In this document: piece after piece, positions 29,972-35,179 of the stretch
Numbering within the stretch: the stretch's first letter is position 1
Layout of the letters: each line of letters opens with the position of its first letter
Assembly: GCF_001677475.2 (NCBI RefSeq)
Contig: NZ_CP015229.1
Strand: one strand, 5' to 3'
Origin: Escherichia coli
Lineage (GTDB): Bacteria > Pseudomonadota > Gammaproteobacteria > Enterobacterales > Enterobacteriaceae
Length of the DNA: 64,000 nucleotides
Translations under genes and position numbers: made by a program
Notes under the pieces: generated by a model
Told to the model about the DNA's origin: nothing
The model's database searches: none
What the model saw: the letters and a program-made list of their open reading frames with translations, nothing else

Positions 29972-30048
29972 CTCAGTCCGCCTGGCGCCGATTATTCTGG
30001 CCGGTTTTGTAACCTGAGTGTCATTTACATGATCCAACAGGAAATGGC

Positions 30049-31548
30049 GTGACGCTCAATACTTCTCAGGTCAGTTACTATATGACTCAGCGTAAGAAAG
30101 GTATAACTCAGCATATCTCGGCCATGAAGGCTGGTATCTCAGTCCGTTCTGGTCGTCGGATCGAAAAAGGAGAGTGGGCAAAAAACAGTGTTCGGCACTG
30201 GCGCACACGCAAAGATCCTCTGGAAGCTGTGTGGGACAGCATGCTTGTTCCTCTGTTGAAAGAGAGGCCGGCTCTGACACCAACAACTCTACTGGAGATG
30301 CTACAGGATAAATATCCCGGCCAGTACCCCAACAGCCTTCGAAGAACAATGCAACGGCGGGTTCGCGAATGGAAACTACAGTATGGTACAGAGCAGGAGG
30401 TCATGTTCCGCCAGCAACATCAGCCCGGCCTGCGAGGCCTGTCGGACTTTACTGAACTGAAAGGTGTAGTTGTCACCATCGCCGGTAAGTTGTTGGCGCA
30501 TAAGTTGTATCACTTCCGTCTGGAATGGAGCCACTGGAGCTGGATGCGGGTTGTTCTGGGTGGTGAGAGCTTCTCTGCTCTGGCTGAAGGCCTGCAGGAA
30601 GCCCTCGGACAACTGGGCGGAGTGCCGGTAGAACATAAAACGGACAGCCTGAGGGCAGCATGGAAACAACAGGGCGAAGATGGACGCCGCGAGCTGACTG
30701 AGCGTTATGCTACTCTCTGTCAGCACTACGGAATGCAGGGCGTACACAATAATGCCGGTCGGGGCCACGAAAATGGCTCGGTTGAAAGTGCCCACGGACA
30801 TCTGAAAAGGCGTATCTGTCAGGCGCTGATACTGCGGGGCAGTAACGACTTCAGCACCATAGAAGAATATCAGGCCTTCATCACTCAGCAGGTTATGCGG
30901 CACAACCGTAACAATCAGGATCTGGTCAAGGAAGAACGTCTTCATCTGAAACCGCTGCCGCTTCGTCGCAGTGCTGACTATGATGAGCTGACTGTGAGGG
31001 TTAGTCGCAGCAGTACCATCAATGTGAAGCACGTCGTCTACAGCGTACCTTCCCGGCTTGTAGGTCAACTGTTACGGGTCAGGTTATGGGACGATCGTCT
31101 GAGCTGTTACGTTGGCAGCAGCGAGGTCATGAGCTGCCCTCGCGTCAGACCAGAAAAAGGGAAGACGCGGGCCCGTCGTATCGACTTCCGACATGTGATC
31201 GACAGTCTGGCAAAAAAGCCCGGTGCGTTCTGCCATGCAACGCTGAGAAATGACATCCTGCCGGACGATGAATGGCGGAGGCTGTGGCGTCGCTTATGTA
31301 ATCATCTGGAGCCCGATATGGCAGGAAGGCTGATGGTACATGCCCTGAAACTGGCTGCAGGATACGACGATATCTCAGTCGTGGCAAAAGGTATGGAGCA
31401 GATGCTGAATACCCCGGGAAACGTGGATCTGCACCGGCTGATGCGCTTCCTGGGTATAAAAGAAAAGGCGTTGCCGGTAGTCAATGTGATACAGCATAAC
31501 CTGAGCAGTTATGAGCAACTACTGCGTGGCAAGGGAGGTTCGCAGTGA
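30049..31548 (+). CDS. istA: IS21-family transposase IstA
   Basis: 499-aa ORF, N-terminal HTH, overlaps istB. Confidence 0.8.
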   Translation: MTLNTSQVSYYMTQRKKGITQHISAMKAGISVRSGRRIEKGEWAKNSVRHWRTRKDPLEAVWDSMLVPLLKERPALTPTTLLEMLQDKYPGQYPNSLRRTMQRRVREWKLQYGTEQEVMFRQQHQPGLRGLSDFTELKGVVVTIAGKLLAHKLYHFRLEWSHWSWMRVVLGGESFSALAEGLQEALGQLGGVPVEHKTDSLRAAWKQQGEDGRRELTERYATLCQHYGMQGVHNNAGRGHENGSVESAHGHLKRRICQALILRGSNDFSTIEEYQAFITQQVMRHNRNNQDLVKEERLHLKPLPLRRSADYDELTVRVSRSSTINVKHVVYSVPSRLVGQLLRVRLWDDRLSCYVGSSEVMSCPRVRPEKGKTRARRIDFRHVIDSLAKKPGAFCHATLRNDILPDDEWRRLWRRLCNHLEPDMAGRLMVHALKLAAGYDDISVVAKGMEQMLNTPGNVDLHRLMRFLGIKEKALPVVNVIQHNLSSYEQLLRGKGGSQ

Positions 31549-32300
31549 GCAATATCCATCACCTTGAACATAGCCTGCGTAAACTACGCCTGACACGAGT
31601 TGGAGCTGAATGGCACGCTCTGGAAAAACGAGCGCTGGCAGAAGGCTGGACACCATCGCGCTATCTTCTGACGCTATGCAATGAAGAACTCCTGTGGCGC
31701 GAGAGTGAAAAACTGCGTCGTTATAAAAAGGAGGCCCGGTTGCCAGTTGCCAAAACGCTGAGCGAATACGACTTCAGTCAGGTGCCGGAACTGAATGGAG
31801 CTCAGTTCCGGCAACTCTGTGAAACGACAGACTGGGTTGATGCAGGAGAAAACGTTCTGCTGTTCGGAGCCAGCGGGTTGGGGAAAAGCCATCTGGCGGC
31901 AGCGATCGTGGATGGCGTAGTAGGTCAGGGCTACCGGGCCCGGTTCTACAGCGCAGGAGAGCTGTTGCAGGAACTACGTAAAGCCAGAGCTCAGTTGAAA
32001 CTGAATGAGCTGCTACTGAAACTGGATCGCTACCGGGTGATAGTGGTGGATGATCTTGGCTATGTCAAACGCGATAGTGCCGAAACGGGTGTGCTGTTCG
32101 AGTTAATAGCGCATCGCTATGAACGTGGGAGCCTGGTGATAACCAGTAACCATCCGTTCAGCATGTGGGGCAGCATCTTCGTGGATGAGACTATGGCGGT
32201 GGCTGCGGCAGACAGGCTGATCCATCACGGATATATGTTCGAACTGAAAGGGGAAAGCTACAGGAAAAAGACAGCGAAGGCAGTAACAAGCGCGACTTGA
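31545..32300 (+). CDS. istB: IS21-family helper ATPase IstB
   Basis: 251-aa ORF with Walker A GASGLGKSHL and Walker B VVDDLG. Confidence 0.9.
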   Translation: MSNIHHLEHSLRKLRLTRVGAEWHALEKRALAEGWTPSRYLLTLCNEELLWRESEKLRRYKKEARLPVAKTLSEYDFSQVPELNGAQFRQLCETTDWVDAGENVLLFGASGLGKSHLAAAIVDGVVGQGYRARFYSAGELLQELRKARAQLKLNELLLKLDRYRVIVVDDLGYVKRDSAETGVLFELIAHRYERGSLVITSNHPFSMWGSIFVDETMAVAAADRLIHHGYMFELKGESYRKKTAKAVTSAT

Positions 32301-32450
32301 TGTCGCCCTGAAGGGTGCGGCCAGTATAGTTGGCGCGAGTCGGCAAAACTAGTTGACGTCTAATAGTTTAAATTTTATCTGGAGCAACACGGCTGGATCG
32401 TTGCCCGTAAAGAACAACTGGTGGAACGGTTGATGCGGTTTTAATGCATG

Positions 32451-32481
32451 CAAAACCCCGGATGATCACCGGGGTTAATTT
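32451..32481. terminator. bidirectional hairpin terminator downstream of tfa
   Basis: CCCCGGATGATCACCGGGG hairpin flanked by A-run and T-run. Confidence 0.55.
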
Positions 32482-33068
32482 TATCGAGCGTGATTGCCGC
32501 TAATCGCCATCTCTCTGATTGAGCGTAAATCATCCAGGCTGCTCAGTTCCTCTTTCATCTCCCGCTGACGTTCGTGGATTTTAAAGCCCTCCGCCACCAT
32601 GGCCACCATCATGGCATCGTTCAGCGCAATAAGTTTCTCCCTGGTCAGTACGACGTTATTATTATCCGCATCAGTCCAGAAAAATCCCTCCGGAAGCAGT
32701 CCGGCCTGTGCTGTTGCAACCACGGGGGCAAGGCGTGACTGCGAGGTTTTTCCGCCATCAAAACGACGGCCATCAAACGTGAAAATAAACTCAACGTTTT
32801 CCTGACTGTCGCGCCATGCCTCAATTTCCCGCCTTTTGGCATCCTTTGCCGCTGCAATAAGTTCCGGCGTGACGGTGAACGGGGCGATTTCGCCCCATTT
32901 CCCGCTTTGCAGCTCCTGCCAGACATGCTGGCCTGTCGGGGCCATATCATCCTGTATGGCGGTATACAGGACGAACTCCGTTTCACCTTCAAATAACACC
33001 TCGCAGTCAACCGCACCATTTTCAAGATAATGCGCGTTTCTGATGCCTTTCACCGCTCTGATTTTCAT
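32481..33068 (-). CDS. tfa: tail fiber assembly protein Tfa
   Basis: 195-aa ORF directly downstream of side tail fiber gene. Confidence 0.8.
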   Translation of the reverse strand: MKIRAVKGIRNAHYLENGAVDCEVLFEGETEFVLYTAIQDDMAPTGQHVWQELQSGKWGEIAPFTVTPELIAAAKDAKRREIEAWRDSQENVEFIFTFDGRRFDGGKTSQSRLAPVVATAQAGLLPEGFFWTDADNNNVVLTREKLIALNDAMMVAMVAEGFKIHERQREMKEELSSLDDLRSIREMAISGNHAR

Positions 33069-33082
33069 GTCTTATTTCCTTA

Positions 33083-35179
33083 TTACTCAATGCGTACAAA
33101 AAGACCGATATAGCCACGCGTTGTATCGTGACTAATGCGGGTCCCCGAAAGCGCCGTGTAACGACCGGGGAAGTTGTATTCACCAGCACCGCCAATCACA
33201 ACCTGCGGTGAGGATGCGTATGTCCCTGTATCGCTAACCCGTGCACTCATAGCCAGAGGGCCAAGACGGGAACCCGGCACAATATCACCGAGCCCCAGAG
33301 ACGCATCTGCACCAAAACTCTCCCCCTGATATGCCGCCATAATCGGCACACCAACGGCCGGGTATTTATAATATGAGCCTGAGCCCGCCATCCTGGACAG
33401 CAGGTACGCCAGTGAATCTCCGTCGTATACAACTACCCGCGATGACATGTTCCAGCTGTTATCGCTGTCGTTGTACCGGTACTGCATATAGTGAATACAG
33501 TGTTCACCCTGATAATACTGGTTGTAGCACATCAGGGTTTTAAATTTGCGGACTGTGTCGGATTCACTGTTGGCGTACGGTGACCACATCACATCAATAA
33601 TGCCGTTAAATTGCGTGGTACCGGTAAGCAGTTGCGAGGAGTCTGTAATACTGACCGCATACCGCCCCGGCGTGACTTTCTTCAACCACTCAACGAAATC
33701 AGACAGCCCCTCAAACGCCAGAGCGTCAGTGCTGGTGAATGCCTGTCCAAACCCATACATCCCGGACAGGGCCAGCCTGCCCGGTGTGCGGTCACGGATA
33801 TCACTCTGGGGTTCCATCGTCGCAGCCGCGTTCAGCTCAAGCTCCGTGCGCATGGCTTCAGCCGTGTCATGCGCCAGTAATGCGCGGCCCTTCTCTGACA
33901 GCAGAGACAGTGAGGCATTCCCGTCTGTATTGAAGTACAGAAGATTATCTGCCCGTTGCGTCAGTGCGCTGATTGCCGTTAAGACGTCATTAAGCGGTTG
34001 TTTGCCTGCCAGCGCGTTTGTGATTGTCGTCGCAAAGTTCGGGTCATTGCCCAGCGCCGCTGCCAGCTCGTTCAGGGTGTCCAGAACTTCCGGCGATGAG
34101 CCAACCAGCGCAGCAAGCAGTTTGCGCACAAACGCTGCGTTCGCTGCTTCCAGACCGGCGGCATCATCCGGTGGGGTTGGGGTGGTTGGGGTGCCGGTGA
34201 AGGCCGGACTGTCCAGTGGCGCTTTTGTTTTCGCCTCGTCCATGACGTCTTTGACAGCCTTTGGCGTGGCAGCCAGTTCCTCGCTGTCGTTGTCCGTATC
34301 ACTACAGAGTTGCACCAGACCTTTTTCTGTCGTGGAGGCATTTGTTGCATTCAGGTCATCAACTATCTGCTGCGCCTCATCCCTGTACTGTTTCGCTTCC
34401 TGCGCATTGTCTGCACCTGCATCCTGGCTGGCTTTAGCCTGTCGGGCGTATTCGGCGGCACTGTTTTTGTGCCCCAGCGCCGCATTTGCCGACAGTTCTG
34501 AACTGGTCGCTGCTGATGATGCGGCATTATGATAAAGGCGGGCGCGTTCGGCGGCATCGACTGATTCGTCCCGCGCTGTGCCTGATGACTGTGCGCTGTT
34601 TTCTGCCTCACCCGCAAAACGTTCCGCATCATCACGGGCCGTTGCGGTTGTCGTCACATCCTGTGCCGTCTGCTGTGCGTTTCCGGCTGCAGCTTCGGCG
34701 CTCTGCTGTGTCTGATTTTTTAGCTCTTCTGCCTCATCCTTACTAACCGCCGCAGATGTTGCTGCATTGATTGCATCATCAGCAGCTGTTTCTGCTCTCT
34801 CCCTGTCACTGACCACCTGCTCAGACAAGCGAACAACGGTATTTACCATTTCCTCAAAACGCTTCATTACCTCAGGGCGTAAATCACCCTCCTTTGGTGC
34901 ATCCAGAAAAGCATTCAGCGTATCCGGCTCATCTGTCGGTGCAACATAAATTTCCCCCGCCTTTACAGGAGGATGCCCTGAGCGGGACAAAAATACATCA
35001 TAAAATCCCGGCTCAGCATTAATAGTATACCCGCCATCACTTCCCGTAAGACAGGTTGCCACAATATTAACCACAACTGTCGGACTGGTTCTTCTGGCTC
35101 GCAATTCAATCGCACAGTTTACGACAGGCTCACCCGCTCCGTCCTTCAGGACACCTGAAATCTTTACTGCCATATTCAC
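33083..35179 (-). CDS. stf: side tail fiber protein Stf
   Basis: 698 aa; N-terminus MAVKISGVLKDG... matches conserved lambda Stf N-terminal domain; Ala/Ser-rich shaft. Confidence 0.85.
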   Translation of the reverse strand: MNMAVKISGVLKDGAGEPVVNCAIELRARRTSPTVVVNIVATCLTGSDGGYTINAEPGFYDVFLSRSGHPPVKAGEIYVAPTDEPDTLNAFLDAPKEGDLRPEVMKRFEEMVNTVVRLSEQVVSDRERAETAADDAINAATSAAVSKDEAEELKNQTQQSAEAAAGNAQQTAQDVTTTATARDDAERFAGEAENSAQSSGTARDESVDAAERARLYHNAASSAATSSELSANAALGHKNSAAEYARQAKASQDAGADNAQEAKQYRDEAQQIVDDLNATNASTTEKGLVQLCSDTDNDSEELAATPKAVKDVMDEAKTKAPLDSPAFTGTPTTPTPPDDAAGLEAANAAFVRKLLAALVGSSPEVLDTLNELAAALGNDPNFATTITNALAGKQPLNDVLTAISALTQRADNLLYFNTDGNASLSLLSEKGRALLAHDTAEAMRTELELNAAATMEPQSDIRDRTPGRLALSGMYGFGQAFTSTDALAFEGLSDFVEWLKKVTPGRYAVSITDSSQLLTGTTQFNGIIDVMWSPYANSESDTVRKFKTLMCYNQYYQGEHCIHYMQYRYNDSDNSWNMSSRVVVYDGDSLAYLLSRMAGSGSYYKYPAVGVPIMAAYQGESFGADASLGLGDIVPGSRLGPLAMSARVSDTGTYASSPQVVIGGAGEYNFPGRYTALSGTRISHDTTRGYIGLFVRIE

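Follow-up and report, generated by a model that had tools for sequence, protein, structure and literature searches.

What did the mobile element near one end of this Escherichia coli prophage do when it arrived: did it settle harmlessly in a spacer between two convergent genes, does it mark a larger rearrangement, or did it break a gene? An earlier note on the window (the whole 64-kb stretch of DNA analysed here) had placed an element of the IS21 family, its istA-istB pair intact, at 30000-32440, between an ORF6N gene and a gene labelled tfa, and had suggested that it may mark a recent rearrangement. The explanation that almost certainly holds is that a known element, ISEc10, entered the ORF6N gene itself by simple insertion.

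The identity and the limits of the element were established by megablast, with window positions 29900-32480 as query and 5,426 complete E. coli genomes as database. Near-full-length matches were found in 546 E. coli records and, among the matches listed, most span exactly query positions 57-2466, which correspond to the following feature of the window.

29956-32365, plus strand: complete ISEc10 (IS21 family), 2410 bp; ends taken from the megablast extents and common to the six copies L003-L008

The annotation in these records reads 'IS21-like element ISEc10 family transposase / helper ATPase IstB'; the best matches, which carry the PGAP label ISEc10 and lie on chromosomes as well as plasmids, are 99.8-99.9% identical over 2410 bp. 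With near-identity over the full length and the same ends as these PGAP-labelled copies, from which the name is taken, there is very little doubt that the element is the known ISEc10 of the IS21 family. What the window adds is one more insertion site for an element known before, and the nearest copies (L003 and L004) differ from the window copy by three nucleotide substitutions. No match to the IS is 100% identical, and the source genome of the window therefore evidently lies outside the set of 5,426. The open reading frames do fall within the interval of 30000-32440 proposed earlier, but both true ends lie to the left of those given, the left one by 44 nt and the right one by 75 nt. The expectation that the right end must precede the terminator was correct, as the IS ends at 32365 and the hairpin occupies 32454-32476. 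A length of 2,530 bp has been quoted for one ISEc10 insertion (PMC8764528), compared with the recurrent 2,410-bp unit found here. ISEc10 is mobile in the laboratory: in E. coli CFT073, selection yielded new insertions upstream and downstream of lpp (PMC7482066).

The ends of the element have both inverted repeats and a target duplication, neither of which could be defined by eye in the earlier reading.

29950-29955, no strand: left target-site duplication GTTTAA, 6 bp, abutting the IS and identical to 32366-32371
29956-30003, plus strand: left terminal inverted repeat (IRL), imperfect, 48 nt, from a repeat search
32318-32365, plus strand: right terminal inverted repeat (IRR), ending ...CGTCTAATA in each of six independent copies
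32366-32371, no strand: right target-site duplication GTTTAA, 6 bp, abutting the IS

By repeat search and direct comparison, IRL and IRR match at 34 of 48 positions (about 71% complementary), and arms of 48 nt are within the range of the family (about 11-50 bp). A look for direct repeats of 4-8 bp, the length of the short target duplications of the family, had been recommended, and it yields a perfect GTTTAA on both sides. For comparison, six copies (L003-L008) were fetched from unrelated contexts, namely within a TonB-dependent receptor gene, on two plasmids, within a phage lysozyme gene, beside another IS21-like element and beside a truncated iutA gene; five of them are 2410 bp long and one is 2409 bp. 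The termini, compared over 30 nt at each end, read 5'-TATGAGACG...CGTCTAATA-3' in the window copy and in all six. Duplications of 5-6 bp accompany five of these copies (TTTTC, GTTGCA, GTATG, GTTGAC and GGTTAC) and, taken together with GTTTAA, indicate that ISEc10 makes duplications of 5-6 bp, inside the 4-8 bp of the family.

The ends of IS21-family elements generally terminate in ...CA-3', a feature that is typical of the family and not strictly defining. The left end of the present element begins 5'-TATGAG and the right end finishes CTAATA-3', so that the outermost bases are TA...TA and an equivalent of the CA is found subterminally, on the left only. As all six comparison copies have the same TA/TA ends, these belong to ISEc10 as such. 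When the first and last 120 nt were searched by k-mers for multiple repeated motifs near the ends, only the inverted repeat came out, with CTGGCCG at position 42 of both ends.

Between these termini lie two genes in the arrangement characteristic of the family, with istB directly downstream of istA on the same strand.

30049-31548, plus strand: istA, IS21-family transposase, 499 aa, intact, GTG start; NCBIfam NF033546
31545-32300, plus strand: istB, AAA+ helper ATPase, 251 aa, intact, GTG start; NCBIfam NF038214

IstA matches the equivalog model NF033546 with 226.4 bits (cut-off 160, E=5e-67) over model positions 2-293 of 294, and phrog_1157 'transposase' with E=4e-124. Its start is identical to the one that PGAP gives for ISEc10 istA, and it shares 492-498 of 499 residues with the proteins of five other copies. 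IstB matches NF038214 (IS21 helper ATPase IstB) with 266.7 bits (cut-off 200, E=2e-79) and Pfam PF01695 (IstB_IS21) with E=9e-62, and its residues 11-243 align to the solved IS5376 IstB structures 8q3w/5bq5 with E=4e-45 (range about 1e-45 to 1e-40). These scores, well outside what chance would give, bear out the earlier assignment to the IS21 family. The description of the istA-istB pair as intact also stands, as neither gene has an internal stop and both lengths equal those of the PGAP-annotated ISEc10 proteins. The GTG start of istB overlaps the TGA stop of istA by 4 nt (GTGA), and GGGAGG is found a few bases upstream.

In IstA, residues 311-366 constitute the Pfam domain Mu-transpos_C_2. 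A search for rve gave no Pfam match in the protein even at E<=10, the Mu-transposase C-terminal domain being the only one found; the NCBIfam IS21 model spans the catalytic core. A phmmer comparison of IstA with PDB sequences gave no match at E<=0.01. Motif and spacing point to D133, D199 and E246 as candidate DDE residues, with K253 seven residues past E246. The motifs of IstB are a Walker A sequence (GASGLGKS, residues 108-115) and a Walker B sequence (VIVVDD, residues 165-170).

A copy of this kind could nevertheless be an inactive relic, with open reading frames that look intact and transposition already lost, and the two residues in IstA and one in IstB that differ from the nearest copies would fit such a history. 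This is unlikely, however, given that both open reading frames are full length and free of stops, that the Walker A and B and DDE-like motifs are present, that five other copies have the same termini over 30 nt per end, and that among seven copies compared not one variant nucleotide is private to the copy in the window. By its sequence the window copy is intact and presumably autonomous, and it is probably still active.

The position of the left end at 29956 changes the reading of the neighbouring ORF6N gene, the pieces of which are now distributed as follows.

29468-29971, plus strand: truncated ORF6N (antirepressor-like) gene, native codons 1-162 followed by NMRRQ and a stop; Pfam ORF6N
32372-32444, plus strand: orphaned 3' end of the ORF6N gene, comprising the third base of codon 163 with the 23 codons and the stop that follow
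32454-32476, no strand: G+C-rich terminator hairpin with flanking A/T runs, from a terminator scan; common to the ORF6N and DUF4376 genes

An ORF of 167 aa that contains a full ORF6N domain (residues 12-96, Pfam E=9e-22) and stops at 29971, a short way before the IS genes, might well be taken for a complete gene, in which case the IS would occupy the intergenic spacer before tfa and no gene would be disrupted. Yet the last 16 nt of this ORF, the TAA stop included, lie inside the IS and are its left-end sequence; the last five codons (NMRRQ) and the stop come from the junction and the IS left end, and the native ...LERF-KFYLEQHGWIVARKEQLVERLMRF has become ...LERF-NMRRQ-stop. The element entered codon 163 (of 186) between its second and third bases, and the final 24 codons of the gene have been cut off. 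Intact homologues are 186-187 aa long and read on into the sequence that is now at 32372-32444. Removal of the IS and of one GTTTAA, which joins 29468-29955 to 32372-32444, restores an ORF of 186 aa. The restored protein differs at few residues from the intact protein of the L001 locus (186 aa), with the last 50 residues identical, and it is the restored protein only that matches phrog_2379 'anti-repressor' end to end (1-186 of 187 profile positions). Its residues from about 100 to 186 also match the C-terminal modules of other phage regulator families, and truncation at residue 162 takes 24 residues from this conserved module. The truncated antirepressor-like protein can reasonably be expected to be non-functional.

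Empty sites in other genomes settle the placement. Matches that run uninterrupted across the junction of the reconstructed empty site were found in nine genomes, the best with 97.2% identity over 687 nt, and no near-identical IS-free version of this exact prophage end was found beyond that best match. Two of these loci, L001 and L002, carry CDSs that PGAP annotates as 'ORF6N domain-containing protein', both intact (186 and 187 aa, respectively) and convergent with a DUF4376 gene. Neither alignment has a gap over the junction, the target is present once (GTTTAA in L001, GTATAA in L002), and the 3' remnant and terminator of the window match L001 at every aligned position and L002 at all but one. 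This alignment refutes the intergenic placement, which retains next to no probability. The earlier location was accurate as to the prophage end region and the position before the convergent gene, but the element lies inside codon 163 of the ORF6N gene and not beside it.

The same comparison bears on the proposal that the IS marks, or itself mediated, a larger rearrangement (a deletion, an inversion or recombination between copies), so that the present flanks would not be original neighbours. IS elements often act in this way, and the copy L006 lacks a target duplication, has a frameshifted istB and adjoins another IS21-like istB. Furthermore, prophage ends are mosaic, and the closest tail-fibre region, that of H61 (99.0%), stops matching at window position 32513, before the ORF6N remnant is reached. 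At the present site, however, a perfect 6-bp duplication abuts both IS ends, the joined flanks align base for base with L001, reading frame and terminator included, and a second copy of either IS end was not found within the 64-kb window. A rearrangement is contradicted for the immediate flanks by the duplication and by the collinear L001 locus, and can be regarded as extremely improbable. A perfect duplication together with a collinear empty site means that the element arrived by simple transposition, without adjacent deletion or inversion, and the view of the IS as a rearrangement marker does not hold.

In the IS21 family, the DDE transposase IstA binds the terminal repeats and cleaves the ends, and its partner IstB, a DnaC-related AAA+ ATPase, forms an assembly on the target DNA and hands this DNA to IstA; staggered strand transfer and repair then leave a short duplication. 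At the present site, an intact, presumably autonomous ISEc10 made a simple insertion in the 3' part of the prophage ORF6N gene; IstA and the IstB ATPase would have introduced a staggered 6-bp cut at GTTTAA, which was duplicated on both sides. The 186-codon gene was split in this event, with codons 1-162 fused to five IS-derived codons and a stop (29468-29971), and the last 24 codons and the terminator are now cut off, 2.4 kb further downstream (32372-32476). The insertion left the DUF4376 and tail-fibre genes, which are convergent, untouched. The IS now lies between the body of the ORF6N gene and the hairpin at 32454-32476.

The insertion was not found elsewhere: a 3.8-kb query over both junctions was matched at coverage of at least 80% in none of the 5,426 complete E. 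coli genomes. The top matches to this query consist of the IS alone (63-64% coverage), and in these genomes the IS adjoins neither flank. The absence from 5,426 genomes and the undecayed state of the remnants (the 3' end and the terminator) favour a recent event, and the insertion is probably both recent and strain-specific; to this extent the word 'recent' in the earlier note was plausible. As a strain-specific marker, the insertion could serve for typing.

Beyond the terminator lies the convergent gene, which has been given the name of the lambda tail fibre assembly gene on the grounds of its position.

32481-33068, minus strand: DUF4376 gene (earlier 'tfa'), untouched by the insertion; Pfam DUF4376, E=4e-19

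The best PHROG for its product is phrog_1141 'tail fiber protein' (E=5e-82), and PGAP names the homologues 'DUF4376 domain-containing protein'. At the thresholds used for Pfam and PHROG, the protein has no match to the lambda Tfa or tail-assembly-chaperone family, DUF4376 being its sole Pfam match. Upstream of it are lom, J and a tail-fibre gene for a protein of 698 aa. The DUF4376 gene should not carry the name tfa.

On the other side, the chromosomal flank with msrPQ, zinT and yodB is found in 5,422 of the 5,426 E. coli genomes, with at least 95% identity in nearly all of them. Matching of this flank stops at about window 29202-29278, and the end of the prophage is placed at about that point. 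ARAGORN detected no tRNA in 26000-34000; a minus-strand tRNA-like fragment, at about 29024-29084, was unconfirmed by Rfam.

For annotation, the ORF6N gene should be recorded as a pseudogene or IS-disrupted gene and not as a complete 167-aa CDS, and the IS should be given its exact coordinates, 29956-32365, with the 6-bp duplication. Beyond correct annotation the importance of the insertion is slight.

The regulatory sequences that precede the disrupted gene lie just inside the prophage end.

29204-29233, plus strand: promoter-like site ahead of the ORF6N gene
29227-29421, plus strand: regulatory RNA leader of the disrupted gene, from Rfam matches
29227-29279, plus strand: stretch like the C4 a1/b1 target (c4-a1b1), 42.7 bits, just under the gathering score of 46.7
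29240-29314, plus strand: isrK with a terminator of its own; Rfam 72.9 bits (gathering score 50)
29340-29421, plus strand: C4 antisense RNA, Rfam 59 bits (gathering score 45)

These RNAs also precede the ORF6N gene at the intact L001 locus. Neither an isrJ-like RNA nor any other RNA family split by the IS was found in the window or at the intact L001 locus. From their homology, the isrK and C4 RNAs may regulate the window locus, and the hit on a module of the isrK/C4 type may slightly change the regulation of the window prophage. Stx-converting phages have related modules, for which the annotation reads 'anti-repressor Ant'.

The known systems with which this leader can be compared are immI of P1/P7 (c4-icd-ant) and the isrK-orf45-anrP module of Gifsy-1, in which IsrK activates the translation of AnrP, an antirepressor-like protein (PMC4825925). 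The layout is the same in each case: at the end of a prophage, and all pointing the same way, a promoter-like site is followed by an isrK-type sRNA that has its own terminator, by a C4-type RNA and by a gene of an antirepressor family. The match in layout indicates that the IS hit the effector gene of a module of the immI/isrK-anrP type. Compared with P1/P7 immI and Gifsy-1, the window differs in that the antirepressor-like gene lacks its last 24 codons, and in that an isrJ-like RNA was not found downstream, in the window or in L001. It may be speculated that the IS inactivates an antirepressor under isrK/C4 control, or parts it from its terminator, and that the result is a selected 'taming' of the prophage and not neutral damage, but this is a doubtful proposition. 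If it were true, induction of the window prophage or of co-resident lambdoid prophages would be altered, or toxicity of the AnrP-to-AntQ type known from Gifsy-1 would be removed, and read-through from the isrK promoter might drive expression of istA-istB.

As for the element, it resembles IS21 and IS5376 in its istA-istB operon with overlapping stop and start, in the combination of a putative DDE-type transposase with an AAA+ helper, and in its terminal inverted repeats and short target duplication. It differs from them in its outermost bases, which are TA/TA in ISEc10 in place of the usual ...CA-3', and its IstA of 499 aa is longer than that of the prototype IS21, which has about 390 aa.

The target duplications of ISEc10, the IS21-family element inserted in the prophage ORF6N gene, can be compared across six sites, namely those of the copy in the window and of copies fetched from other E. 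coli contexts: GTTTAA, TTTTC, GTTGCA, GTATG, GTTGAC and GGTTAC. These duplications are T-rich and usually start with G(G)T, which may reflect a target preference of the element, six sites being too few for testing. GTTGAC also lies inside ISEc10's own right end (..AGTTGACGTCTAATA). A unit of 2,410 bp is common to the six fetched E. coli copies, one copy being 2,409 bp. The latter (L006, NZ_AP021946.1, 1501-3909) has a frameshifted istB, is without a target duplication and adjoins the istB of another IS21-like element, and probably belongs to a cluster of IS elements that are nested or rearranged. An ISEc10 insertion of 2,530 bp has been described (PMC8764528), 120 bp longer than the 2,410 bp at window 29956-32365, and the published figure may include flanking sequence or represent a variant.

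To the right of the element, the following features were annotated:

32481-33068, minus strand, DUF4376 / phrog_1141 protein gene
33083-35179, minus strand, tail-fibre gene, 698 aa
33546-34532, plus strand, ORF of 328 aa antisense to the tail-fibre gene

The central part of the tail-fibre gene is Ala-rich and strongly skewed (AT skew down to -0.4), and because of this skew the opposite strand carries the 328-aa ORF, which is almost certainly spurious. Among the tail-fibre regions of the collection, the nearest one (H61) is 99.0% identical and its match ends at window 32513, showing mosaicism at this prophage end. The DUF4376 gene occupies the position of lambda tfa, 3' of the tail-fibre gene, but by these searches its product is a DUF4376 / phrog_1141 protein and falls outside the Tfa chaperone family; it may act as a chaperone or form a distal part of the fibre.

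Homology to the conserved chromosome ends at 29202-29278. Some 120-180 nt outside that point lies a tRNA-like 3' fragment (~29024-29084, minus strand) with an anticodon-arm-like stretch, a GGTTCAAATCC T-loop and the end ...CTCTCCGCCA; it resembles the 3' two-thirds of tRNA-Ser (serU). ARAGORN made no tRNA call on this fragment and none was reported with the Rfam tRNA model. It is possibly an att-site remnant.

Immediately 5' of the ORF6N gene, Rfam matches extend over window 29227-29421:

29227-29279, plus strand, c4 a1/b1 targets (slightly under threshold)
29240-29314, plus strand, isrK (72.9 bits)
29340-29421, plus strand, C4 antisense RNA (59 bits)

The same RNAs are carried by the locus with an intact, IS-free ORF6N gene (L001, 2761-2954). 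Judged from these matches, this end of the prophage carries a module for antirepressor control that resembles P1 immI and Gifsy-1 isrK-anrP.
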